Source: a virus
IMG/VR virus record: IMGVR_UViG_3300024990_000004
DNA: 56,946 nt
Direction: 5' to 3' (one strand)
In this document: one piece after another, positions 210 to 56,946 of the stretch
Layout of the letters: the number at the start of each line of letters is the position of its first letter
Numbering within the stretch: the stretch's first letter is position 1
The notes under the pieces: generated by a model
Databases searched by the model: none
The model's input: the letters and a program-made list of their open reading frames with translations, nothing else
Told to the model about the DNA's origin: nothing
Made by a program: the position numbers and the translations under genes

Positions 210-709
210 TGACATTCTACGCCCACGAAAATCTGGTGCTGGTGGTGGACGGGGAGAACACCTGGCACACCGCCAGGGCCCTCGATCTCGACATTGATTG
301 GGGCAAGCTGCGCGACCTGTTCGCGCGGCAAGCCACCCTTACCGGCGCCTACTACTTCACACCAATGTACGAGCAGGAAGACGGCTTCGCGCCCGTCAAG
401 CGCCTGGTCGACTGGCTGGACTTCAACGGCTGGCAGACCTGGACGGATGGCCGCGACGTATCTGCGGACATGGCGACCGCGGTGATGGAAATGGCGCGCA
501 ACGGTGCCGAGCACTTCGTCATCGCCAGCGGGAACGCAACCTTTGCCGAACTGGTTGCCGCGCTGAAACGTCAGAACAAGGTGGTCACGATCCTGTCCGC
601 CCTGCCGCAATGCTCCGAAGACCTGCGGCGCGCGGCGGACGCCTTCCTCGATCTCTCTACCATCCGCAACTACATCAGCCGGGCGAAGAAGGAGACGGTA
701 GCGGCATGA
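209..709 (+). CDS. NYN/LabA-like (PIN-fold) domain protein with a degenerate acidic motif
   Basis: 166 aa. VVDGEN, SADMATAV and FVIASGNATFAELVAALKRQNKVV follow the NYN layout, but the usual SGDSDF reads SGNATF. The ATG shares its A with the upstream TGA. Confidence 0.7.
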   Translation: MTFYAHENLVLVVDGENTWHTARALDLDIDWGKLRDLFARQATLTGAYYFTPMYEQEDGFAPVKRLVDWLDFNGWQTWTDGRDVSADMATAVMEMARNGAEHFVIASGNATFAELVAALKRQNKVVTILSALPQCSEDLRRAADAFLDLSTIRNYISRAKKETVAA

Positions 710-2490
710 AGTTTCCTATCAGCGACGACGCCCTGGATGACCGCTTGGCTATACTGGGAACAGCCGGGAGTGGGAAAACGTACCTCACCACAACAGCTAT
801 TGAGCGCCTGCTGAAATCTGGCAACCGCGTGGTGGCAGTTGACCCCCTTGGCGTCATGTGGGGCCTGCGGTTGAAGGCGGACGGCAAGACGGCATCCCCA
901 TTCAATGTCGTGATCTTCGGGGGGCGGCACGGTGATTTGCCTCTCACTGAACACGCTGGCGCGCTGATCGGTGAAACCGTCGCCACGATGCGGGAAAGCT
1001 GCATCATTGACCTATCGGAATTGCCGACGAAGGCGGCAGAGCGCCGGTTCATGACTGCGTTCCTGGAAGCCATCTATCGGCACACCGACCCGACCAAGGT
1101 TGATCCATTCCACCTCATCATTGACGAGGCCGACCGCTTCGCGCCGCAAAAGCCGCCCGCCGGCGACGAAACTATGCTGAACCGCATGGAGGAAATCGTG
1201 CGGCGCGGGCGGGTGAAGGGCTTCATCCCCTGGCTCATCACCCAGCGCCCCGCCGTTTTGAACAAGAACGTCCTCAGCCAGGCGGACGGGCTGGTACTGC
1301 TGAAGTTGACCAGTTCGCAGGACCGCGACCAGGTGGGGGCATGGATTGAGGGCCAGGCCGACAAGGCGCAGGGCAAAGCGATCCTGGGGTCCCTGCCCGC
1401 AATGCAGCGCGGCCAGGGTGTGGTCTGGATTCCGGGCCGAGGCATTCTCGAAACAGTACAGTTCCCCAAGAAAACTACCTTCGACAGTTCCAGCGCTCCC
1501 AAGCGCGGCGAGAAGCGCAACGCCAACGAACTGAAGCCTCTCGACGTGGGGAAGCTGAAGGACCGGCTGGCGACGGTAGAAGCCGACACCAAGGCGAACG
1601 ATCCCAAGGCGCTCAGGGCCGAAGTGACCAAGCTTCGGGCGGAACTGGCGAAGGTTGACGGAACGCGCCCAAATTCGCATTTGGTTGCACAACGTGCCGT
1701 GCAACCGAATGCCGCTGACCAGAAGGCTCAGGAACGGGCGCTGGCTGCGGCGCGAGAGGAAGGCGCCCAGGCCGTTCGGGATCAAATCCCCGCTATGCTG
1801 GACGCCCAGCACCAGGCCAGCTTCCAAGCTGGATTCGAGTTCCTGGCCGGCCGCCGGGCCGTATTTGAGACGGACTTCATACCGGCTCGGAAGCCCCTGC
1901 CAGGCAGATCGACCAAGGCGCTCCCGATGGCAGCGAGCCGGCCTGCCCACGCCCCAACCGCCCCCAGCGGCCCGAAACCAACGCTCTCGCGCGCCATCGG
2001 CGCCGGGGACGCTTCCGGCCTGACGCAGCCGCAGCGCCGGATCCTGGCTTCTATCGGCTTCTGGCTATCGGTGGGGAATGAAGCCCCCACCCGCGCCCAG
2101 GTGGGCGGCGTGGCGGGCTACAGCCCCTCATCCGGCGGTTTCAACAACCTCCTGGGCCAGCTCAACAGCGCCGGGCTCATAACCATCCCCGCCCAGGGCC
2201 GCGTCTCCCTGGCACCGGGCGCGCCCTATGACGCCCTCGATCTGGAAGAGGCAAAGGCCAAGGTCCATTCGGTCCTGAGCAACCCCGAGCGCAAGCTGGT
2301 GAACGCGATGGTGGAGGCCGGCGGCGGCCCCATGACGCGCGATGACTTGGGCGCGGCCACCGAATACTCGCCCACCAGCGGAGGCTTCAACAATCTGATC
2401 GGCGGCCTTTGCACACTGACGATCTTCGAGAAACCGGCGCAAGGCCAGGTCGCGCTATCGGCATGGGCGCGCGAGGTGCTGGCGGCATGA
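706..2490 (+). CDS. HerA/FtsK-type (DUF87-like) P-loop ATPase with two C-terminal winged-helix-like repeats
   Basis: 594 aa from ATG 706 (ATGA overlap). Walker A LGTAGSGKTY, Walker B HLIIDEADRF, then RGRVKGFIPWLITQRP..LSQADGLVLLKL. Tandem repeats GYSPSSGGFNNLLGQL / EYSPTSGGFNNLIGGL. Confidence 0.8.
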   Translation: MKFPISDDALDDRLAILGTAGSGKTYLTTTAIERLLKSGNRVVAVDPLGVMWGLRLKADGKTASPFNVVIFGGRHGDLPLTEHAGALIGETVATMRESCIIDLSELPTKAAERRFMTAFLEAIYRHTDPTKVDPFHLIIDEADRFAPQKPPAGDETMLNRMEEIVRRGRVKGFIPWLITQRPAVLNKNVLSQADGLVLLKLTSSQDRDQVGAWIEGQADKAQGKAILGSLPAMQRGQGVVWIPGRGILETVQFPKKTTFDSSSAPKRGEKRNANELKPLDVGKLKDRLATVEADTKANDPKALRAEVTKLRAELAKVDGTRPNSHLVAQRAVQPNAADQKAQERALAAAREEGAQAVRDQIPAMLDAQHQASFQAGFEFLAGRRAVFETDFIPARKPLPGRSTKALPMAASRPAHAPTAPSGPKPTLSRAIGAGDASGLTQPQRRILASIGFWLSVGNEAPTRAQVGGVAGYSPSSGGFNNLLGQLNSAGLITIPAQGRVSLAPGAPYDALDLEEAKAKVHSVLSNPERKLVNAMVEAGGGPMTRDDLGAATEYSPTSGGFNNLIGGLCTLTIFEKPAQGQVALSAWAREVLAA

Positions 2491-5463: not shown

Positions 5464-5730
5464 ATGGGCGATATTCGCAACAAAATTGCCAAGATCGAGC
5501 GCGCCAAGGCCGAGAAAGCCGCTATGGAGACGTTCCTGCGCGCAGGTGGATGGACGCCTGGCCCCCGACGCCGAGAGGAACCCCTGCCCCGCTGCGCCTG
5601 TGGGAACACCTGGAAGGATGCTCCCGCCTTCTGGGCCTGTCATGGAGGCCATTTCGAGCCCGTCCGCTTCTATTGCCCTGCCTGCCTGCCGGATGAGATG
5701 CGGGCTTCGATGCTAGACGACAGGACATAA
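5464..5730 (+). CDS. small Cys-rich protein (88 aa)
   Basis: ATG 5464. Contains CACG..., CHGGH and CPAC motifs. It is the last plus-strand gene before the terminator. Confidence 0.55.
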   Translation: MGDIRNKIAKIERAKAEKAAMETFLRAGGWTPGPRRREEPLPRCACGNTWKDAPAFWACHGGHFEPVRFYCPACLPDEMRASMLDDRT

Positions 5731-29825: not shown

Positions 29826-30149
29826 CTAGGCCTGTGCGCGTTGAATGAGCGGCTGAGAACCGCGAGCGGCAATGGATGCCAGGATTTGCAGGGCGTGGTC
29901 GACGCAGGCCTCCACATTTCCCATCAGCGGCTTGGCCTCGAGCAGGTTGAAGCGCATGGCACCCTGCCACTCCACGCCGTCACGCGCACCCTTGAACCAG
30001 ATGGTCAGCTTGCCATCGATCTTGCTTTCGACCTTCCAGACCGGGCAGCCATGCATGGTAGCGTCGTGCTGTTTCAGGCCCTGCAGGACGTCGGTCTCGA
30101 AATCACGGTGGATCTCGCCCGCCGCCAGCGGCGTGGAACGCAACGCCAC
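29826..30149 (-). CDS. hypothetical protein (107 aa)
   Basis: Tracked ORF. Confidence 0.55.
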   Translation of the reverse strand: MALRSTPLAAGEIHRDFETDVLQGLKQHDATMHGCPVWKVESKIDGKLTIWFKGARDGVEWQGAMRFNLLEAKPLMGNVEACVDHALQILASIAARGSQPLIQRAQA

Positions 30150-30855: not shown

Positions 30856-33363
30856 TCAACTGGCCCAAGCGGATGGCGCCCGTTGTCGGCGGCGCTTTCG
30901 CAGCGCATAGCGCGAGCTTTCGTCTTCCACGTCCGGCTTCGGCCACTTCACGTCGAGAGCGGGATCTTCGATGCGGGCCAGCATGTCAAAGAAGTCTTCG
31001 TGCATGGCGACGGGGAACGCCTTGTATTCCTCGTCGACGAACATCTGCACGATGTCGATCTGCCGGTCTTCATAGTCCGTTTTTACCAGGACTTCCGGGA
31101 GCCAGAAGCGTCCGGCCTCGAAGAGGGGTACCAGCTTGCGGATGCGGTCATGCTTGGCCAGGCCGCCGCCCAGGGGCGTGATCTCGAAGCGATATTCCTC
31201 TTCGGTCATCTGGGTTTCGAAATGCTGCAGGTCCGACTGCAAGCCGTATTGCTCGTATCCGACACCCTTGGGCCGCCACCGGCGATGCAGCTGGGAAAGG
31301 GCCTGCCACCGTTCCGTCAGGCTGAGGCGGTCGCGGATACCGTCCAGAAGGTAATAGTTCTGGTCGGGGCCCAGCCCGATCACGCCCATGGCGGTGAAGT
31401 CGCTGTCCTTCTTCTTGGCGTTGGCCGGATCGCACAGCAGATATTTGACCATGCGGTCGCCGCTGATGCGGCCAGAATAGTAGCGCAGCCACTCTTCCTT
31501 GAAGCCGGCCTTCTTGTCGGCGGTGGGGTCTTGGAGCATCTGCGAGCTGAAGGTGTAGATGCCCTGGTCACGCCGCTTCTTGGCCAGCACGTCCGCCGGC
31601 ATCAAGACGGGCGTGCCTGGGAAGGTTCCCTCCACCGTGCAGGTGTGAATGCGGGGTTTGACCGAGCCGCGCGCCATCATTTCACGATACGGATCGGCAT
31701 AGTGATAGCGGGTGCCGATGTAGCGTTCCCACCCGCCGACCTTGCCCAAGTTCAGGCTCAATTCCCAGGCGCCGGTGGTGCGCCGGATGGCATCGGGGTT
31801 GCGCACCGAGTCCTGGTCGATCACGTCGTCATAGACGCGGCCCATGAAGTGCTTGCCGGTAGGCATGCCTTCGACCAGTCCCCAGCATTCGAGCGTGGCT
31901 TCCTTGGGGTTGCCGGTGCGCTTGACGATCAAGCCTTCGTTCTCAGACCATTTCGGCGCCTGCTTCTTCGGCTCCATCCACAGGATGTCGCTGAACAGCC
32001 GCTTCAGGTCGTCGTTGTTCTCGAACTCAGCCTTGATCGGGCGCAAGAAGCCTTTGGCGGCTGCCCGGGTGTGGCTGAAGATGCCGATCGTCACCTCGGG
32101 ATCGATCAGGATGTCCTGGATCGTCTTGGCGAAGGTGATAATCGTGCTGTTGTGTGTCGTCACCATTTGGCGGCCGGCCAGATAGAGGCCATCCGCTCGT
32201 TCAACCTGAATGCAAGACATGGCTCGGCGGCCAATGGCTTTGCAGCTGATGATGAAACGCTTGGCGTTACGGCTGCCCGGCTTCGCTCTTTCTGCTTTGC
32301 GCCGAATGTGGAATGGATTCTGAGCCTGGTAAGCCTGGAATGACACCTGCCAGAACGTTCCGTGCGACGCGCGATATTCCCGTTTGACGGGCTTCATTCC
32401 GAGACTGGTGGCCAGATCGAAGACCAAGGTGGCAAGGACGCCGGTCTTGTTGGTGAAGGTGGCTGTTCCCCGAGTGTTGCAATGGCCATCTGTGTCCATC
32501 AGGCCGCGCAACAAGGCCAACCGCTGCTGCTCGCTGCCCCGCAGATAGTCCATCGGAAGCGCTGTTGCTTTGCTTCCGATCAGACCAAGCCCCCGGAGCA
32601 GAGGACTCAGCCCGTAGACCGTGCGCCGCAACCTATTCGCTGGCCCGATCTTAAACCCCTCGGACTGGATACCTTCTGCGATGTCGGCATCGCCAAAAGT
32701 AATTGAACCATCCGCGCTCGTCCCGTCTCCAAGCCAGCAACCGAGTGTGTATGGGCCGATTGGAAGAATGGCCTCCGGCATATCCAGCGGAGCATTGACC
32801 GGGATGGCAAGGCGCTTGTCAGGCCGGTGCGATATGGCAGCGATTTCCTCGGTTGCGATGACCTTTGGTTCACGATAAGCGCGGCCGCCAGTAATCCTGC
32901 GCCTGGAACGCGCCTCGACCTGCCACAGGTGATCGCGGCTTGCCTCCATCCTGGAGCCGTCATCGAAAACCAACTCGAACGCCGGTGCCTCATCAAAGAC
33001 CTTGGAGACGGCAACCACACGGGTTGGCTGGCCATCAGGGCCAAAGACCCAGTCATCAGGCTTCAGGTCGCCATGGCGAGCCCAGCCGGACGGTGTTGGT
33101 ACTGGCTCATCCAGCCGCAGGGCTTTGTAATGTTCGCGCGCCCACAGGTCCAAGTGCCCATTGGGCGAGGCCTGGACTTCGCAGCACCGCTCGAACAGCC
33201 AATCCCGGTTGATGTCCTTTCGCTTCAGCGGGAACAGCAGCAGATAGAACAGGTCCGCGCGGCAGAGTTTGCGCTGGGCCTCGATGAAATGGCTTTCGCC
33301 CTGCTCGCGGGCGCGGTCCAGAATGCGCCGATAGGCGCTCAGCCGCTCAAGGCGTGGGTTCAC
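30856..33363 (-). CDS. terL: terminase large subunit interrupted by an intein (835-aa precursor, 510-aa exteins)
   Basis: P-loop LDLWAREHYK|..intein..|STIITFAKT. The C-terminal half has terminase nuclease-type motifs (LLCDPA.., AMGVIG). Confidence 0.85.
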   Translation of the reverse strand: MNPRLERLSAYRRILDRAREQGESHFIEAQRKLCRADLFYLLLFPLKRKDINRDWLFERCCEVQASPNGHLDLWAREHYKALRLDEPVPTPSGWARHGDLKPDDWVFGPDGQPTRVVAVSKVFDEAPAFELVFDDGSRMEASRDHLWQVEARSRRRITGGRAYREPKVIATEEIAAISHRPDKRLAIPVNAPLDMPEAILPIGPYTLGCWLGDGTSADGSITFGDADIAEGIQSEGFKIGPANRLRRTVYGLSPLLRGLGLIGSKATALPMDYLRGSEQQRLALLRGLMDTDGHCNTRGTATFTNKTGVLATLVFDLATSLGMKPVKREYRASHGTFWQVSFQAYQAQNPFHIRRKAERAKPGSRNAKRFIISCKAIGRRAMSCIQVERADGLYLAGRQMVTTHNSTIITFAKTIQDILIDPEVTIGIFSHTRAAAKGFLRPIKAEFENNDDLKRLFSDILWMEPKKQAPKWSENEGLIVKRTGNPKEATLECWGLVEGMPTGKHFMGRVYDDVIDQDSVRNPDAIRRTTGAWELSLNLGKVGGWERYIGTRYHYADPYREMMARGSVKPRIHTCTVEGTFPGTPVLMPADVLAKKRRDQGIYTFSSQMLQDPTADKKAGFKEEWLRYYSGRISGDRMVKYLLCDPANAKKKDSDFTAMGVIGLGPDQNYYLLDGIRDRLSLTERWQALSQLHRRWRPKGVGYEQYGLQSDLQHFETQMTEEEYRFEITPLGGGLAKHDRIRKLVPLFEAGRFWLPEVLVKTDYEDRQIDIVQMFVDEEYKAFPVAMHEDFFDMLARIEDPALDVKWPKPDVEDESSRYALRKRRRQRAPSAWAS
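32149..33123 (-). mobile_element. intein (325 aa) with LAGLIDADG homing-endonuclease domain; class-3-like (Ala1, W-C-T)
   Basis: Starts ALRLDEPV and ends VTTHN|S. Block B is SRDHLW and block F is AMSCIQVE. LAGLIDADG motifs LGCWLGDGT and LLRGLMDTDG. Confidence 0.8.
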
Positions 33364-38408: not shown

Positions 38409-38606
38409 CTACTCTCTGACCAGCGCATAGCAAGCCGCGCCCACCATCGACACGGCGATGAACAGCACCATGCCGGTAATCCACATGGCGATCATCACCG
38501 CACGCAGCGGCCAAAGCAGCGCGCGACCGATAAATCGCAACCCGTCAGAAGCGGTGGACATGCCGTCTCGGCCGACGCTGCTGACAGGTGCTTTCTGTGA
38601 CGTCAC
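38409..38606 (-). CDS. small membrane protein (65 aa)
   Basis: Two hydrophobic helices; ATGA overlap with the upstream gene. Confidence 0.55.
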   Translation of the reverse strand: MTSQKAPVSSVGRDGMSTASDGLRFIGRALLWPLRAVMIAMWITGMVLFIAVSMVGAACYALVRE

Positions 38607-39274
38607 GCCGCTTTTACCTCCTGCTCGATCTTCTTCAGGGTCCAGTCGGGCACCTTCCAGCAGGCAAAGCCGATGAAGACGCTGGCCATGCCGCGGTCGC
38701 TGCCGACATAGACGCCTTTGCGCCCAAAGGCATGATTGTCGCGGTCGCCGGCGATCATCACTTGGTCGCCCGGCACCAGGTCGGCGCGGGGCTTGGGTTT
38801 CTTGCGGGCCAAGGCGCGCGCCATCTCTTCGTCCTCGGCCTGGCGCAGGCCTTCGATGATGGATGCAGGAATCGGCGTGGGCCGGTCCCCGCCCAGCAGG
38901 GCCGCGCCATCGGAGTCATCCATCCCGCGCGTATTGCTGATCTGCCCGAAGGGATCGCGCTGCAGGTCGAAGGCGACGAAAATGTATCCGGTGAATCGCA
39001 GGATGCTCCGGGCCTCGATCTTTCTGCCATCCTGCCAGCGCATATGGATCTTCGGCAGATAGACCGCAAAGCCCTGCTCGCGGAGATTGGAAGCTGCCAC
39101 CCATTCCTGCTGGTCCTTGGTTACCCCCGCAAACCACTGCTTGTTGGGCAAAACACCGATCACGGCCCGCGCCAGGGTGTGGCACGTCACATCATCCAGT
39201 TGCAGCTCGTTGGCTTTGGCCCTGGTGCGCAGAGCGAGCGCGGCGCGGCGAATGTGGGTCTGAATGTCAAACAT
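38603..39274 (-). CDS. NusG/RfaH-like transcription elongation (antitermination) factor
   Basis: NGN-like WVAASNLREQGFAVYLPKI...RFTGYIFVAFD and KOW-like VPGDQVMIAGD..FGRKGVYVG. Confidence 0.65.
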   Translation of the reverse strand: MFDIQTHIRRAALALRTRAKANELQLDDVTCHTLARAVIGVLPNKQWFAGVTKDQQEWVAASNLREQGFAVYLPKIHMRWQDGRKIEARSILRFTGYIFVAFDLQRDPFGQISNTRGMDDSDGAALLGGDRPTPIPASIIEGLRQAEDEEMARALARKKPKPRADLVPGDQVMIAGDRDNHAFGRKGVYVGSDRGMASVFIGFACWKVPDWTLKKIEQEVKAA

Positions 39275-39280
39275 GGCTGG

Positions 39281-39988
39281 CTACGCAACTTCGTTTCTGG
39301 GAGGGTAGCGGCGTTCTATATCCTCAACCGTCACCCCGACTTTCTTGGCAATCGCGGCCTTGAGCTCGGCGGCATCTGTGCTGTCACGGCCCGTTTTGAT
39401 CCTGGCCGAAAGCTGGGTTTCTTCGTCGTCCCGCCGCGTGTCGCTGACCACGCGCATACGGTCCCCCAGTTCGTTAAGCCGCTGCGCCATGCTTCCTAGC
39501 GCATCGTCGGCCGGCGGCGGGAGCGCCAGCAGCTGGTTTGCCTTTTCCAGCGCAAGCATTTTCTGCCGCCGGGTCTTGATATCGTCTGCGCACAGATCAC
39601 GCAGCTGGCCGGGATCGGGAAACCATTTTGCCTTCCCCTCATTCGGCGCCATGACGAACCGCTCGGCCGCCGAGCGGAGCATTTTTCCAGTCACGCCTGC
39701 CCGGCTCAGAAGCTGGAAATAAAGGTCCAGCATTGTGTGCGCGTCATCGGGCGATAGGTTCGCCCTGGGCATTAGGATCGCCAAGTTCTTCAGCACACTG
39801 TCGCATTCCTCTTTCCGCAGCGGCACACCCAGGGCCGCCTCGAGTGCCTGCAGTTCGCGCTTAAGCTGGGGCACGGGGAGAGATGACAATCTCCTCGCCT
39901 CCGCCATCGAATAGGCCGTTCCCATTGCGCTCTTGAACGGCACGACCGACTGTGGCGGCAAAGCCTGTGAGGGCAGGTTTTTGGACAT
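39281..39988 (-). CDS. replication-module protein of unknown function (235 aa)
   Basis: ATG 39988 after AGAGG. This frame has clearly higher GC3 than the overlapping tail of the initiator gene. Confidence 0.55.
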   Translation of the reverse strand: MSKNLPSQALPPQSVVPFKSAMGTAYSMAEARRLSSLPVPQLKRELQALEAALGVPLRKEECDSVLKNLAILMPRANLSPDDAHTMLDLYFQLLSRAGVTGKMLRSAAERFVMAPNEGKAKWFPDPGQLRDLCADDIKTRRQKMLALEKANQLLALPPPADDALGSMAQRLNELGDRMRVVSDTRRDDEETQLSARIKTGRDSTDAAELKAAIAKKVGVTVEDIERRYPPRNEVA

Positions 39989-40694
39989 GGTCACCTCTGT
40001 CCGATTTGAGTTTGAAAACATCGCGCCAACTGTTCCTGGTGGATTGATCGAGAACTTCCCCGGGGTCATGGCCATGCTTCCGCAGTTCGTCGAGCTTGCT
40101 GACGATCAGCGTCTTGGCGCGATCGGTGAGCGGGTAGCGGATTTTATTCCGCATAGCGACGAAGCCTGTCCAGGCATCGACTGGTAGCCAAGCAGGCAAC
40201 CCCAGATCGAGTTCAGCCTGGGGCTTGGAATGGGAGCCGCCCGAAGGGCGTTGCGCCTTTGGTTCCTCTGGCGGTTCTATTGACGGTTCATCCTTATATG
40301 GGATTCCACCTGGTGGAATGGTTTTTCCACCTCCGGGAATCTTATTTCCACGAGGTGGAATCGATTTTCCACCGGGTGGAATCGCACCCTTCCGCTTTCC
40401 ACGAGGTGGAATCTCCTGCCAAGCCTCCGGGACGGCGATCTGAAAGGCCTTGATGGCGTAGCCATGTTCGGGGTGGAGCGCGTCAAGGGCCTTTATCAGC
40501 CCCAGGCCCTCAAGAGCCGTCAGGTGCTTGTAGACAGTCGATTGGCCCAATTCGGTGTGCTCGATGAGCAATTCTATGGACGGCCAGCAGAAGCCCTGCT
40601 CGTTGGCATTGTCGGCTAGCTTCGCCAGCACCAGCTTGGCTGCCGGTGACCCGGTGTGCTGCTCCATGGCCCAAGAAACGACTTTTCCACTCAT
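39861..40694 (-). CDS. replication initiator (N-terminal wHTH), lambda O-like with an internal origin
   Basis: wHTH PAAKLVLAKLADNANEQGFCWPSIELLIEHTELGQSTVYKHLTALE. The central IPPGG/IPPRG repeats are encoded by the iterons. Confidence 0.75.
   Translation of the reverse strand: MSGKVVSWAMEQHTGSPAAKLVLAKLADNANEQGFCWPSIELLIEHTELGQSTVYKHLTALEGLGLIKALDALHPEHGYAIKAFQIAVPEAWQEIPPRGKRKGAIPPGGKSIPPRGNKIPGGGKTIPPGGIPYKDEPSIEPPEEPKAQRPSGGSHSKPQAELDLGLPAWLPVDAWTGFVAMRNKIRYPLTDRAKTLIVSKLDELRKHGHDPGEVLDQSTRNSWRDVFKLKSDRGDHVQKPALTGFAATVGRAVQERNGNGLFDGGGEEIVISPRAPA
40303..40412. repeat. five 17-bp palindromic iterons (candidate origin of replication)
   Basis: (A/T)TTCCAC-N3-G(G/T)GGAAT starting at 40303, 40324, 40345, 40366 and 40396, giving spacings of 21, 21, 21 and 30 bp. 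Confidence 0.8.
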
Positions 40695-40704
40695 GCTGCA
40701 TTAC

Positions 40705-41331
40705 TCAAATGGGAGCTCTGAGGAATTGCGGGGGGGGGGGGGGGGGGGGGGGGGCTTCATTGCCTTCGTCGTCGAACTTTCCTGTCTGATGACCCCAACC
40801 GTCGTAGCCGGGCCGCGATTTTCGGCTGAACAGATCGGCGCGGCCTTGCAGGTTCGGGCAGCACGCGTCCACCATCCGGTAAAATTCCTCCGGCTTGCGC
40901 GAGTGCTGGCGGGCGATACCGTCGAAGCAGGACAAGAAGGGCTCGTGAGTGGGATTGCCCGTCACGCAGAGCAAGATTGGCTCGTGACATGTCCGGACAC
41001 GATAACCGGTGCCCATGCGGACCTTCCCGCTAGTCGTGGTCTTGCGCCACACAATCTCGGTCAAAGGCCGGAACCCCCAGGCAGCGGCCACTTGCTGTGC
41101 CTGCCCGGTGGCAATTGTCCAACCGCATGTCCACATCAAAAGCAGACAATCTCGGGCGGCGAGTTCTCCCACCCGCAGGGCCTTGATCGCATCGAGGCTC
41201 ATCACCTGATAGTGGGGATCGGCGCCCTTGGCGGTGCCGGCGTCGGAATAGTTCTCGAAGTCCCACGGCGGGTCCGCAACGATAAGGTCGTAGCCGAACA
41301 TCTGCATGGAACCGAACTGCCAAGCCGTCAT
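40705..41331 (-). CDS. MT-A70-family DNA N6-adenine methyltransferase
   Basis: DLIVADPPWDF motif. ATG 41331 follows GGGGAG. The C-terminal Pro8 is encoded by the homopolymer. Confidence 0.85.
   Translation of the reverse strand: MTAWQFGSMQMFGYDLIVADPPWDFENYSDAGTAKGADPHYQVMSLDAIKALRVGELAARDCLLLMWTCGWTIATGQAQQVAAAWGFRPLTEIVWRKTTTSGKVRMGTGYRVRTCHEPILLCVTGNPTHEPFLSCFDGIARQHSRKPEEFYRMVDACCPNLQGRADLFSRKSRPGYDGWGHQTGKFDDEGNEAPPPPPPPPQFLRAPI
40730..40754. repeat. 25-nt G homopolymer (poly-C on the coding strand)
   Basis: Counted directly. It lies in the last 16 codons of the methylase and 35 nt upstream of the initiator ATG. Confidence 0.9.
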
Positions 41332-41501
41332 GCCGCTCCCCCGTCCCGGGCGATGACGCCCGTCATTGCCTTCACAGGCTCGGCCTTTCCGGTCTTGAGG
41401 ATGCGCCGCACATCCCCCAGCCGTTTCTCGTCCAGAGCGGCGATGGCATCTGCGATGACGCCCTGCAGGCGGCCGACTTCCCTTTCCAGATCGACGGTCA
41501 T
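41328..41501 (-). CDS. small protein (57 aa)
   Basis: Not in the ORF track. ATGA overlaps at both ends link ParB-like, this ORF and the methylase. Confidence 0.5.
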   Translation of the reverse strand: MTVDLEREVGRLQGVIADAIAALDEKRLGDVRRILKTGKAEPVKAMTGVIARDGGAA

Positions 41502-42838
41502 GTGAACGACCCCGATGGCTTGTTGCCCTTGAACACGGCGGGCGCATTGGTCAGCGGTTCGAGCTTGAACTTCTGGCGCACCTTGTTGACGAAATTGAAC
41601 AGGCCCGACAGGTCGTACATCTTGCCGTCGATGACGTAGGGCTTGCGCAACCGAGATTTGCCACGGCGGGCGGAGTGACCGTTGCGGTTCAGCCAGTCCA
41701 GCAAGTCGCTGGTGTTTCCGGTAGCGCCGCTCTCAAACCGGCGCACGCCATGCTTTTTCAAATGCGCCTCGATCAGCGCGCGCTCGTCGACTTTGGGCTT
41801 CGGCGGCGTCACAGGTCTGGCTTCGCGCTCCATGACCAGCCGATGGGCTTCCTGAGTCCGTGCGAGGGCAGCCGCTCTATCGCGTTCCACCTTGGAAGGG
41901 GCTTTCGGCGCCTGCCGCTTCTGGAATGCGACCGGGGCGCGCCCCTTTCGAGCTGCCTTCAAAGCCTCTGCCCTCTCGACTTCCAGGGGGTTGATGGTCT
42001 TGCCGCCATCGCCCAGGGATTCGTGAAGGGTGTGGGCGAGAACCTGGGCCACCATTGCCCGCAACGTGCCCTCACCGTTGCCCTGGCGCTGCATGGCGGC
42101 GGTCAGGATCGCCCTCACCGTCTTGCGGTGAACCACGCGGCGACATTCATCTTCGGTCGCCAGCCATTTCGGATGGGTGGCATAGACGTCGCAGAACCCC
42201 TCGATCATGGAGGCCTTGACCAGACCCGCATTGCCCGAGCCCGTGCGCGTGATGAGCTCCAAGGCGGCAACCAGGGCGGTGCGCCCTACCCGCTGCAGCT
42301 CCAATTCGATGGTCTTGCCGGCGAGCGTCTCGCCCACTTTCAGCAGGGAAGACGCGACCGGGTAGGCCAGGATTTTGACCCCTGCCGCCATCGCAGCTTC
42401 ATTTCCCGCAACTGCGGACTTGTCACCGGCCGCGATCCGGGCCCGGAACAGATATTGCGGATGCATCCTGGTGACGATGCCGTTGATCGTGGCGAAAGCC
42501 GCGGCTTCTTCCGCCGGCGTGCATGACAGGATGTGGCAGGGTACCTCTTTGATGCCCCCATGCAGCGCGCACGCTACGGCCCGGTGCTGGCCGTCGACGA
42601 CGGCATAAAGGCCGCCCGGCCTTGGGGACACCACCAAGGGTGCGAACTTCGTCCAGCTGAAATTCTCGATAATGCCGCGAATGGTCTTGCGTCCAGCCGC
42701 ATCGACCGGGCGCTGATAACTTTCGTCGATGCGCAGCTGCACCAGAGGCAGCCATGCCTCTTTGCCTTTCGCGCCCAGGTCGCGCGCGGGAGTGGGCGGC
42801 GGCTCGAAAGAAAAGCTGGCCAGGGGAAGCAAGCTCAT
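41498..42838 (-). CDS. ParB/Srx N-terminal-domain (DGQHR) nuclease-like protein
   Basis: LRIDESYQRP..., LYAVVDGQHRAVA. 446 aa. Confidence 0.75.
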   Translation of the reverse strand: MSLLPLASFSFEPPPTPARDLGAKGKEAWLPLVQLRIDESYQRPVDAAGRKTIRGIIENFSWTKFAPLVVSPRPGGLYAVVDGQHRAVACALHGGIKEVPCHILSCTPAEEAAAFATINGIVTRMHPQYLFRARIAAGDKSAVAGNEAAMAAGVKILAYPVASSLLKVGETLAGKTIELELQRVGRTALVAALELITRTGSGNAGLVKASMIEGFCDVYATHPKWLATEDECRRVVHRKTVRAILTAAMQRQGNGEGTLRAMVAQVLAHTLHESLGDGGKTINPLEVERAEALKAARKGRAPVAFQKRQAPKAPSKVERDRAAALARTQEAHRLVMEREARPVTPPKPKVDERALIEAHLKKHGVRRFESGATGNTSDLLDWLNRNGHSARRGKSRLRKPYVIDGKMYDLSGLFNFVNKVRQKFKLEPLTNAPAVFKGNKPSGSFT

Positions 42839-55180: not shown

Positions 55181-56946
55181 ATGAACGCCCACGCCAAGAT
55201 CGCCATCGCCACCGCAATGCTGTCCCAGCTCAAGCCGGGATCGGAATACCCCGGCGGCAATATCAACGCCCGCCTCACCTATACCGATGACGAAATTGAG
55301 GAACTGGCCGCCAGCCTGAAAGGCCCGGATGGACAAATTCGCCCACTCCTGGTCGCCACCCATCCCAAGAAGCCGGGTGTGTTTTTCGTCTTCGGCGGAG
55401 GGCGCCGACGCATTGCCTTCGAGCGGCTGATTGTGCGCGGCGATCTTCCCAAGGATCACCCCATTGAGATCATCGACCATGGCGAGATCACGCCCGCCCA
55501 GGCCCTGTCGCGGTCTTTTGCAGATAACCAGGCGGTTCCCATGCACCCCGCCGACCAGGCAGCGACTTTTGCCAAGCTGGCCGCGGATCGAACCCCAGAA
55601 GAAATTGCCAGGGAACGGGGCATGACGGTTCGAGGCGTGAAGCAGTCCATCGCGTTGGGTACAGTCCTGGCCCCCGAGGTTCTGGCGGCGTGGCGGGCTG
55701 GGAAGCTGTCCCGCGAAGAGGTCGAGGTTTTCACCATCGCTTCCGACTTCGAGTCCCAGGCAAAGGCCCTAGCTGACAGCTACAGCTTCAAGAATGGCCA
55801 CGGCATTAAGGCCAATGAGGTCCGCCGCGAGCTGACCAAAAACAAAGAGCCGGAAATGAAACGGCTGCTGGGCTTTGTCGGAGTGGCGGATTACCGGGCC
55901 CAAGGCGGCGAAGTGGCCGAGGACTTTTTTGGCGAAGGCGGCAACGTCAAGGACATGAAGCTGCTGCGCAAGCTGGCCAAGGCCAAGATGGAAGGCATTG
56001 CCGCCGACCTCGAATCCACCGGCTGGGCATGGGTGGAAGCCGATCTGGCGGAAGCGCGCAGCCACCATGGCTATGGCGCGGTCCATGCGGACCCGGATTA
56101 CACCGTCGAGGAAAAGAAACGGATCGGGGAACTGACCGCAGCCCTCGAGGCCATGGCCAATTCTGATGAAGATCACGATTACATCGGGGAAATGCGTCTC
56201 GAAAGAGAGCGCGATGCTATCGAAGAGATAGCCACGTTCCGCGCCTTCACCGAAAAGCAGAAGAAAAAGAGCGGTGTCATTGTCTCGCTGAAAAGCGACG
56301 GCACGGTGGTGTGCCAAGGCGGGTTGCTCCGCAGGGATGAGCCCAAGGCAGCAGCGAAGCCGGGCACTCCTGCTGCACGCGCGTCGGAGCCGCCGAAGAT
56401 CCCCGACATCAATCGCGAGGTCGAGGAATCCTTGAACGATCTGCAGGATGATGTGCTGGCCAACCTGATAGCGGCCAAGCCCAAGGAAGCTTTTGCCCTG
56501 TTCCTCGCCGCCATCCCCCATTGTGATTGGCGCGGCGTTATCCGGTGGGCCGACCTAAACGATGCCGCCGATGATCTAATTCCGGGGAAGGACTTCGCAG
56601 CTTCATTCGCAGCGCTCCGCAAGCTGCCGATCGACAAGATGGCCGCCAAGCTGGCGGTAATGGTCGGAAAAGTCGCCAACGTCAGCGGCTATGTCAGCGG
56701 CAACAAGGATGCCATCGCCATTGTTGACATGGTCGGGGAAAAGAACCTGCAAACCGGGCTCGCCAAGGCGTTCGATCCCAAACCCTACGTCACTGGCGCA
56801 TCTAAGCAGCATCTTCTCGGTATCCTGGCTGAAACCCAGGGCGACGAAACCCGCAAGGCCCATGAAAGCGACGGCGAGGCAAAGCTGGCGCTGCCCGTCA
56901 TCCAGGCCATCAAAGCCACCGGATGGCTGCCGCCCGCGCTGCGCAC
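55181..56946 (+). CDS. large ParB/Srx-domain protein, N-terminal 588 codons (continues at 3..209)
   Basis: Not in the ORF track because it runs off the end. RBS AAGGAA. IRPLLVATHPKKPGVFFVFGGGRRRIAFERL, plus HTH TPEEIARERGMTVRGVKQSI. Confidence 0.8.
   Translation, partial: MNAHAKIAIATAMLSQLKPGSEYPGGNINARLTYTDDEIEELAASLKGPDGQIRPLLVATHPKKPGVFFVFGGGRRRIAFERLIVRGDLPKDHPIEIIDHGEITPAQALSRSFADNQAVPMHPADQAATFAKLAADRTPEEIARERGMTVRGVKQSIALGTVLAPEVLAAWRAGKLSREEVEVFTIASDFESQAKALADSYSFKNGHGIKANEVRRELTKNKEPEMKRLLGFVGVADYRAQGGEVAEDFFGEGGNVKDMKLLRKLAKAKMEGIAADLESTGWAWVEADLAEARSHHGYGAVHADPDYTVEEKKRIGELTAALEAMANSDEDHDYIGEMRLERERDAIEEIATFRAFTEKQKKKSGVIVSLKSDGTVVCQGGLLRRDEPKAAAKPGTPAARASEPPKIPDINREVEESLNDLQDDVLANLIAAKPKEAFALFLAAIPHCDWRGVIRWADLNDAADDLIPGKDFAASFAALRKLPIDKMAAKLAVMVGKVANVSGYVSGNKDAIAIVDMVGEKNLQTGLAKAFDPKPYVTGASKQHLLGILAETQGDETRKAHESDGEAKLALPVIQAIKATGWLPPALR
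56820..56946. repeat. terminal overlap identical to 1..127
   Basis: See feature 1..127. Confidence 0.95.

Follow-up and report, generated by a model that had tools for sequence, protein, structure and literature searches.

The stretch of viral DNA analysed here, IMG/VR record IMGVR_UViG_3300024990_000004 (56,946 nt, referred to over its whole length as the window), contains at the junction of a methylase gene and a replication-initiator-like gene an uninterrupted run of 25 G on the plus strand, corresponding to C25 on the minus strand that codes for both genes. This tract lies within the last 16 codons of the MT-A70 methylase open reading frame (ORF), and its 3' end is found 35 nt upstream of the initiator ATG at 40694. 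The features of the junction are as follows:

39861 to 40694, minus strand: lambda O-type replication-initiator-like gene; HTH_36 domain at the N terminus (Pfam PF13730, E=2.9e-11)
40691 to 40729, minus strand: junction, 35 nt plus the initiator ATG(A), with one stop per frame leaving the tract
40705 to 40707 (TGA), 40701 to 40703 (TAA) and 40691 to 40693 (TGA, overlapping the ATG at 40692 to 40694), minus strand: junction stops, from the frame computation
40730 to 40754, minus strand: poly(C) simple-sequence repeat, G25 on the plus strand, proline-coding in all frames
40705 to 41331, minus strand: MT-A70 adenine methylase gene (Pfam PF05063, E=1.4e-25), 208 aa in the 25-C allele

The tract is a genuine simple-sequence repeat. 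The next-longest homopolymers in the window reach only 7 nt (A7 at 5729 and C7 at 12795), and from base composition about 2e-8 runs of at least 25 G or C are expected over its length. A first-pass annotation, made from the letters of the sequence, had described the run as the sole homopolymer of such length and had placed eight prolines in the last 16 methylase codons, 35 nt before the ATG at 40694, and on both counts it was right. With 25 C the methylase ends in APPPPPPPPQFLRAPI followed by a stop codon. A run of C reads as proline in every frame, and all alleles encode about n/3 prolines, n being the number of C, followed by one of three short tails. Note that the window carries an exact terminal direct repeat of 127 nt (1 to 127 and 56820 to 56946); it is therefore a circular assembly of about 56.8 kb, and the tract is internal to it.

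Evidence for variation in the tract came from other assemblies of the same phage. The cluster of proteins at 90% identity to which the methylase belongs has four members that differ only after the sequence ...NEA: in the window eight prolines and QFLRAPI follow, in a second variant four prolines and QFLRAPI, in a third four prolines and AIPQSSHLSNAA, and the fourth is a partial protein that ends with PPPP at the end of its contig. The contigs behind these variants were recovered through the protein cluster and through look-ups of the exact proteins, and the tract was then read in the DNA. With the 57-aa ORF that precedes the methylase gene as a probe we obtained 22 contigs of the same phage, and scans for the exact pattern of the tract flanks returned no match in viral, metagenome or genome contig collections. 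The alleles, read from assemblies and not from reads, are the following:

25 C, both flanks: the window
13 C, both flanks: ENA ERZ28594250/SAMN05389822 (2 contigs with this variant)
14 C, both flanks: Logan SRR3901707 (9 contigs with this protein variant), JGI 3300003489 and Logan SRR5626803
contig end inside the tract after 15 C: JGI 3300025006
contig end inside the tract after 17 C: ENA ERZ17914460 (a node with 102x coverage)
contig end inside the tract after 21 C: Logan SRR3901706
contig end inside the tract after 25 C: ENA ERZ28594721/SAMN05389821

The commonest allele is thus 14 C, present in at least 10 contigs from three pipelines, and forms with at least 21 C occur in three assemblies (the window and the contigs labelled L138 and L139). 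Outside the tract no mismatch to the window was found, neither over 6.6 kb in L001 and L002 nor in L003 to L009, L135 to L141 and L143. The sole fetched copy with substitutions is L142, a low-coverage contig of 1233 nt from ENA ERZ781401 that has 5 mismatches and ends before the tract; its substitutions show that another sample contains a slightly diverged strain. Apart from these the tract is the only variable site seen among the fetched copies. The contigs that end within it are about 52 to 57 kb long, and it is spanned by only about one in two full-length assemblies. For practical purposes this is a warning, as the tract breaks up assemblies of the phage and leads gene callers to report three or four 'methylase' proteins for one gene. 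The short contigs L007, L008 and L009, which have low coverage and come from different assemblies, all start exactly 2 C before the downstream flank, a shared start that may reflect the trimming of poly-G/C reads or end trimming by the assembler.

On both sides the flanks are unique and constant in the JGI, ENA and Logan contigs, and between genomes that are otherwise identical in these assemblies the repeat number differs (13, 14 and 25 C). Slippage is expected of G:C homopolymers of about 7 to 9 nt or more, a length that is exceeded by the 25 nt of the window as well as by the 13 to 14 nt found elsewhere. We conclude that the tract is almost certainly hypermutable. Differences of 1 to 2 nt could be library stutter, but allele differences of 11 to 12 nt are hard to explain by technical causes, and the length classes 13 to 14 and at least 21 each recur. 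The slipped-strand tract proposed by the first-pass annotation is borne out by this pattern of three spanned lengths and of further assemblies that break after 15 to 25 C. In repeat type and in its polymorphism between genomes the tract thus agrees with a contingency locus.

The consequences of a change in length were computed for tracts of 9 to 30 C, and they fall into three classes:

3n+1 C (13, 25): tail ...QFLRAPI, TGA at 40705 to 40707, 10 nt before the ATG
3n+2 C (14, 26): tail ...AIPQSSHLSNAA, TGA overlapping the ATG as ATGA (overlap of 4)
3n C (15, 24): tail ...RNSSELPFE, TAA 6 nt before the ATG

The outcomes that had been given earlier for 24, 25 and 26 C were reproduced exactly. Whichever frame is read, translation of the methylase ends no more than 10 nt from the initiator ATG, and both the methylase domain and the initiator remain complete; what varies is the tail and the distance from stop to ATG (-4, 6 or 10 nt). 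The 25-C allele of the window lies outside the frame of the ATGA overlap, while 14 C lies inside it. In a post-hoc test, three upstream frames that remain open for about 20 nt and are then stopped within 13 nt were found at 2 of the 1906 ATG triplets of the window.

The methylase is predicted to be made in all of these frames. Its true start is the ATG at 41331, in ATGA overlap with the stop of the 57-aa ORF, and the Pfam match to MT-A70 extends to residue 182 in the numbering of the 208-aa protein (254 in the 280-aa long ORF). The KFD motif at residues 185 to 187 marks the approximate end of the catalytic domain, some 20 codons upstream, and the tract starts at residue 194. After KFD, 25 aligned homologues carry 3 to 25 variable and unrelated residues, and the methylase homologues of known phages, which are distant (at most 45% identity), give matches that end at query residues 184 to 188, before the prolines. 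Judged from these alignments the tail appears to be dispensable, and the earlier expectation that length changes would spare the methylase domain was correct. A frameshift that abolishes the methyltransferase, the hallmark of a phasevarion, is not found here.

The tract consists of CCC codons only, a codon that accounts for 37% of the proline codons of the phage, and other PPPP or PPPPP runs in the phage proteins contain no long homopolymer. This argues for growth of the tract through slippage at the DNA level, as opposed to selection for a proline-rich peptide. Protein-level selection for polyproline was accordingly rejected as the origin of the tract, a single codon being used throughout.

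In the 35-nt junction before the initiator no clear Shine-Dalgarno motif was seen by eye, and 4-nt ATGA overlaps recur at many junctions of the operon; the initiator is therefore probably translated by coupling to the methylase gene. Termination-reinitiation in bacteria tolerates stops a few nucleotides to either side of a start codon, and with all stops within 10 nt coupling of the initiator should survive at any tract length. The arrangement looks frame-robust, or buffered, and not like a toggle. The first-pass annotation had suggested that length changes could toggle the coupling to the initiator, which is not supported in that form, all lengths being compatible with termination-reinitiation. 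Two further candidate roles were considered and rejected. The predicted fold of the messenger RNA (mRNA) stays at -83.7 to -83.8 kcal/mol for 9 to 26 C, with the same start-codon accessibility and a tract that is mostly unpaired, which disposes of a structural switch. A role as promoter spacer was discarded as well, for no promoter-like site surrounds the tract: a consensus scan of positions 40200 to 41700 gave 0 sigma-70-like sites on either strand.

Comparison with related loci (L010 to L013) bears on the original frame of the gene. In L010, L011 and L013 alike the methylase gene terminates in an ATGA overlap, and in the latter two the protein ends in ...AA before the stop, like the 14-C allele. 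By this comparison 3n+2 is the ancestral or native frame, and the 25-C allele of the window is thus frameshifted with respect to the ancestral form, which is also the commonest. The syntenic locus L011, whose methylase is 62% identical to that of the window, has together with L012, a second and independent assembly, a C9 at the orthologous position of the tail (GKPSPPPASAS...), followed by GCA as it is here. Conservation of the tract had been named at the outset as a point on which its interpretation would hinge, and the result is divided: a tract is present in one syntenic relative, whereas L010 and L013, read as DNA, have none, and a PPP tail occurs in 0 of the 116 other homologues outside the phage's own cluster, among the matches listed.

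The same comparison places the tract at the edge of a conserved block. The gene order DUF6551, MT-A70, (insert), HTH_36, x and NusG-like recurs in L011 and L013, but in comparison to L011 the DUF6551 protein is 46% and the methylase 62% identical, while the initiator reaches 29% over 52 aa of the helix-turn-helix region only. From the sharp drop in identity after the methylase it follows that the tract sits at a mosaic module boundary. In L011 a gene for an HNH endonuclease is inserted directly after the methylase, at this same junction (positions 40694 to 40705 of the window, compared with 3136 to 3806 of L011). A search of viral contigs based on the initiator found no related locus, and blastn against known phages gave no close relative and only matches of about 60 to 90 nt in the helix-turn-helix region.

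The surrounding gene string includes the following additional features:

38603 to 39274, minus strand: NusG-like gene of 223 aa (Pfam PF02357, N-terminal domain), which closes the gene string
40303 to 40413, unstranded: five 18-nt palindromic iterons, TTTCCAC-NNNN-GTGGAATC, with a spacing of 21, 21, 21 and 30 nt; putative origin
41328 to 41501, minus strand: the 57-aa ORF, with ATGA overlaps to both neighbours
41498 to 42838, minus strand: DUF6551 gene (Pfam PF20188), its product being the one compared above with the protein at the same place in L011

The DUF6551 gene, whose family we take to resemble ParB, opens the conserved module of DUF6551, small ORF and MT-A70. The NusG-like gene keeps its position in L011 (5390 to 5636) and L013 (4822 to 5502), and its product may be a phage-encoded transcription factor of the NusG/RfaH type. 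The initiator has a weak DNA match to the 'DNA replication protein O' of a Serratia phage. The iterons (TTTCCACnnnnGTGGAATC) lie inside its coding sequence, where they encode a repeated IPPGG/IPPRG peptide, and this is the lambda O/ori layout, in the phage of a GC-rich host. Their proximity to the tract, pointed out in the first-pass annotation, is real, with a distance of about 310 bp. The window also encodes an integrase, a major head protein, a portal, a large terminase and tail/ejection proteins, and it is therefore the genome of a temperate tailed phage. One NCBI copy is binned as 'uncultured Devosia sp.', and the host is probably alphaproteobacterial. Two ORFs match 'terminase large subunit' PHROGs, at 610 to 2490 (plus strand) and 30856 to 33363 (minus strand). 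The N-terminal part of the 835-aa ORF also matches a DNA primase family, and for the 626-aa ORF the match is confined to the C-terminal, nuclease-like part of a terminase profile.

The explanation that we favor, and to which we assign a better than even probability, is that of a poly(C).poly(G) repeat which is genuine and hypermutable, is tolerated and buffered in a permissive spot, and does not act as an ON/OFF switch. Its site is the dispensable 3' tail of the methylase gene, between the conserved DUF6551/methylase module and a fast-diverging initiator/origin module of the lambda O type. The length would change by slipped-strand mispairing during replication, and each change alters only the number of prolines, the choice among the three tails and the geometry of stop and ATG (overlap, 6 or 10 nt). 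With the catalytic domain complete before the tract and a stop beside the initiator start in each of the three frames, the tract would be buffered, and as frameshifts would be cheap at this place it could run away to 13 to 25 nt and more. Any function would most likely be a graded effect on the coupling-dependent translation of the initiator, exerted through the coupling distance or through polyproline stalling that depends on EF-P. Such stalling is established for PPP motifs, and by analogy it may occur at this tract.

Several observations weigh against this explanation. Part of the length spread could stem from stutter in the polymerase chain reaction (PCR) during library preparation or from the choice of the assembler at a long G:C run, and as several contigs may stem from read sets shared between JGI, ENA and Logan, the independent samples are probably fewer than the contigs. 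The C-run retained at the same place in a relative with a 62%-identical methylase hints at something beyond neutral drift. The rare arrangement of three stops may reflect passive permissiveness, but also selection that keeps the initiator coupled, and the latter would imply that the tract matters.

The most basic objection, that the tract is not part of the phage and arose as a two-colour poly-G artefact or at a chimeric join, was raised as an alternative in the first-pass annotation. The caution was reasonable: at least 120 IMG/VR contigs have a run of at least 25 G, and among the 80 listed (L014 to L093) most runs lie no more than about 100 nt from the end of a locus or contig, as artefacts or assembly breaks would be, with about one fifth internal. 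The present tract, however, is internal to a circular assembly, is bordered by identical unique flanks in JGI, ENA and Logan assemblies, stands in frame at the end of a gene whose neighbor order is conserved in relatives, and has a C9 counterpart in one of them. It is neither a run at a contig end nor an unreproduced join of unrelated sequences, and the artefact reading is effectively refuted, with a probability that we consider negligible. Somewhat more can be said for a tract that is real but fixed in length, with a spread of 13 to 25 that is technical and due to PCR stutter, Illumina quality collapse or the path choice of the assembler. The many full-length assemblies that cannot cross the tract and the three low-coverage contigs that stop 2 nt into it would be in line with this view, as would the notoriety of long G runs in metagenome contigs, the position of most listed IMG/VR runs at contig ends, and the probable origin of some contigs in the same reads. 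Nevertheless, typical PCR stutter amounts to 1 to 2 nt, far less than the 11 to 12 nt that separate the alleles with both flanks (13/14 versus 25). The reproduction of 14 C by three pipelines and the recurrence of forms with at least 21 C in three assemblies also speak against it, and the 127-nt terminal overlap points to an assembly with large k, in which a 25-nt run would need real k-mers that span it. We consider a fixed length to be quite unlikely.

Among functional readings, the model of the first-pass annotation, an adaptive contingency locus in which the frame moves the stop from the ATGA overlap to 6 or 10 nt and thereby switches the coupling of the initiator, is in our estimation unlikely. 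If it were true, sub-populations of the phage would differ in their replication or lysogeny behavior. The alleles with both flanks span at least two frames (13 and 25 C are 3n+1, 14 C is 3n+2), coupling probably matters at a junction with repeated ATGA overlaps and no Shine-Dalgarno motif clear to the eye, chance would seldom produce the three-stop arrangement, a relative retains a C9 at this position, and contingency loci in phages are now documented (Gomez, Barrick and Waters 2025 preprint, PMC12633550). On the other hand, all frames stop at a permissive distance from the ATG, so that a graded change is the most that can be expected, neither protein is abolished in any frame, predicted mRNA folding and start accessibility are independent of tract length, and the tract is absent from two relatives read as DNA and its PPP tail from all of the other homologues listed. 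A reading in which the three stops are a selected device, and the tract is a rheostat that is insensitive to frame and graded by length, seems improbable to us. Here the number of prolines (4 to 8 or more) would set the EF-P-dependent stalling before the coupled start, and the longest tracts might in addition set the loading of Rho on poly(C) RNA; a hypermutable repeat would then continuously diversify the dose of the lambda O-like initiator, and hence the outcome of replication or of the lysis-lysogeny decision, across the phage population. Less probable still is a role of the nucleic acid itself, either as a template-strand G-quadruplex or polymerase barrier about 310 bp upstream of the iterons, which would modulate transcription into the origin or replication, or as a poly(C) loading site for Rho, which would cause a length-dependent polarity on the initiator gene. 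The tract does lie near an origin of the lambda type, and the lambda origin needs transcription nearby; poly(C) is the classical activator of the Rho ATPase, and the same operon contains a NusG-like gene. Rho utilization (rut) sites are unstructured, C-rich and G-poor RNA of about 70 to 80 nt, and no other 80-nt window of the minus strand is as C-rich and G-poor as the one around a tract of 25 C (C minus G = +25, 3.8 standard deviations), but with 14 C the region drops out of the top five such windows, and the flanks are not rut-like. For a G-quadruplex, which takes four G-runs and at least three tetrads, G25 qualifies formally, but 13 to 14 G cannot stack three tetrads. Moreover, the RNA is C-rich and not G-rich, such that stabilization through an R-loop or G-quadruplex is not expected on the non-template strand, and the tract is missing from nearly all relatives that share the operon and its NusG-like gene.

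A comparison with known systems shows where this tract departs from them. In bacterial phasevarions (Haemophilus, Neisseria, Helicobacter, Campylobacter) the repeat is located 5' or centrally in the coding region, and a frameshift abolishes the enzyme and switches the methylome. The tract shares with them the simple-sequence repeat in a gene for a DNA methyltransferase, but it follows the domain, on its 3' side, and is predicted to allow production of the enzyme in all frames. The homopolymers that serve as promoter spacers, such as the poly-C of Bordetella fim and the poly-G/C of Neisseria porA and opc, are situated between the -35 and -10 hexamers. As in the present case these are long runs of C or G, found in GC-rich or pathogenic bacteria, and their output is graded rather than binary, as any output of our tract would most likely be; our tract, however, is inside an ORF, and the scan found no sigma-70-like promoter around it.

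Closer parallels come from phages, where hypermutable repeats have only recently been recognized as a source of bet-hedging, in Campylobacter phages in 2021 and in T-even phages in 2025. The polyG tracts of the Campylobacter Fletcherviruses, as summarized in PMC12633550 (citing Sorensen et al. 2021), comprise 7 to 11 G in genes for receptor-binding proteins and act in an ON/OFF manner. In terms of that summary the common ground is a G:C homopolymer in a phage gene, slippage and a heterogeneous population, and the differences are the length of 13 to 25 nt and more, the position after the catalytic domain in the tail of a methylase, and the lack of an inactivating frame. The same preprint cites a polyG in the methylase of the Bordetella phage BPP-1. 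In its genome (AY029185) we found as the only homopolymer of at least 8 nt a G8 at 29922 to 29929, in bpm, at about codon 195 of 251. BPP-1 is likewise a temperate phage of a GC-rich proteobacterium, and in both genomes the only long homopolymer is found in a gene for an adenine methylase. In BPP-1, however, the tract has 8 nt, a frameshift changes or removes the last 55 or so residues of Bpm, and no link to a downstream initiator gene is annotated; Bpm is also not homologous to the MT-A70 enzyme described here (BLASTP E=0.27). For the A-runs of 6 to 9 nt in agt and rIIA of T2 and T4, reversion rates were measured and a pay-off in the evasion of defence was demonstrated (Gomez, Barrick and Waters 2025 preprint, PMC12633550). 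What the two cases have in common is that homopolymers slip and thereby supply phage populations with reversible frameshifts; the present tract is two to three times longer and consists of G:C instead of A.

Next to these cases the tract stands as a clear example from the environment, carried by a GC-rich temperate phage; it is far longer, has natural length alleles in public assemblies, and is placed at the junction of a methylase and a replication initiator instead of in a gene for receptor binding or anti-defence. If its length affects the dosage of the initiator, the phage would have in it a new means of diversifying its replication behavior; if length has no effect, it would be a useful case of a runaway repeat that survives only where all three frames are harmless.

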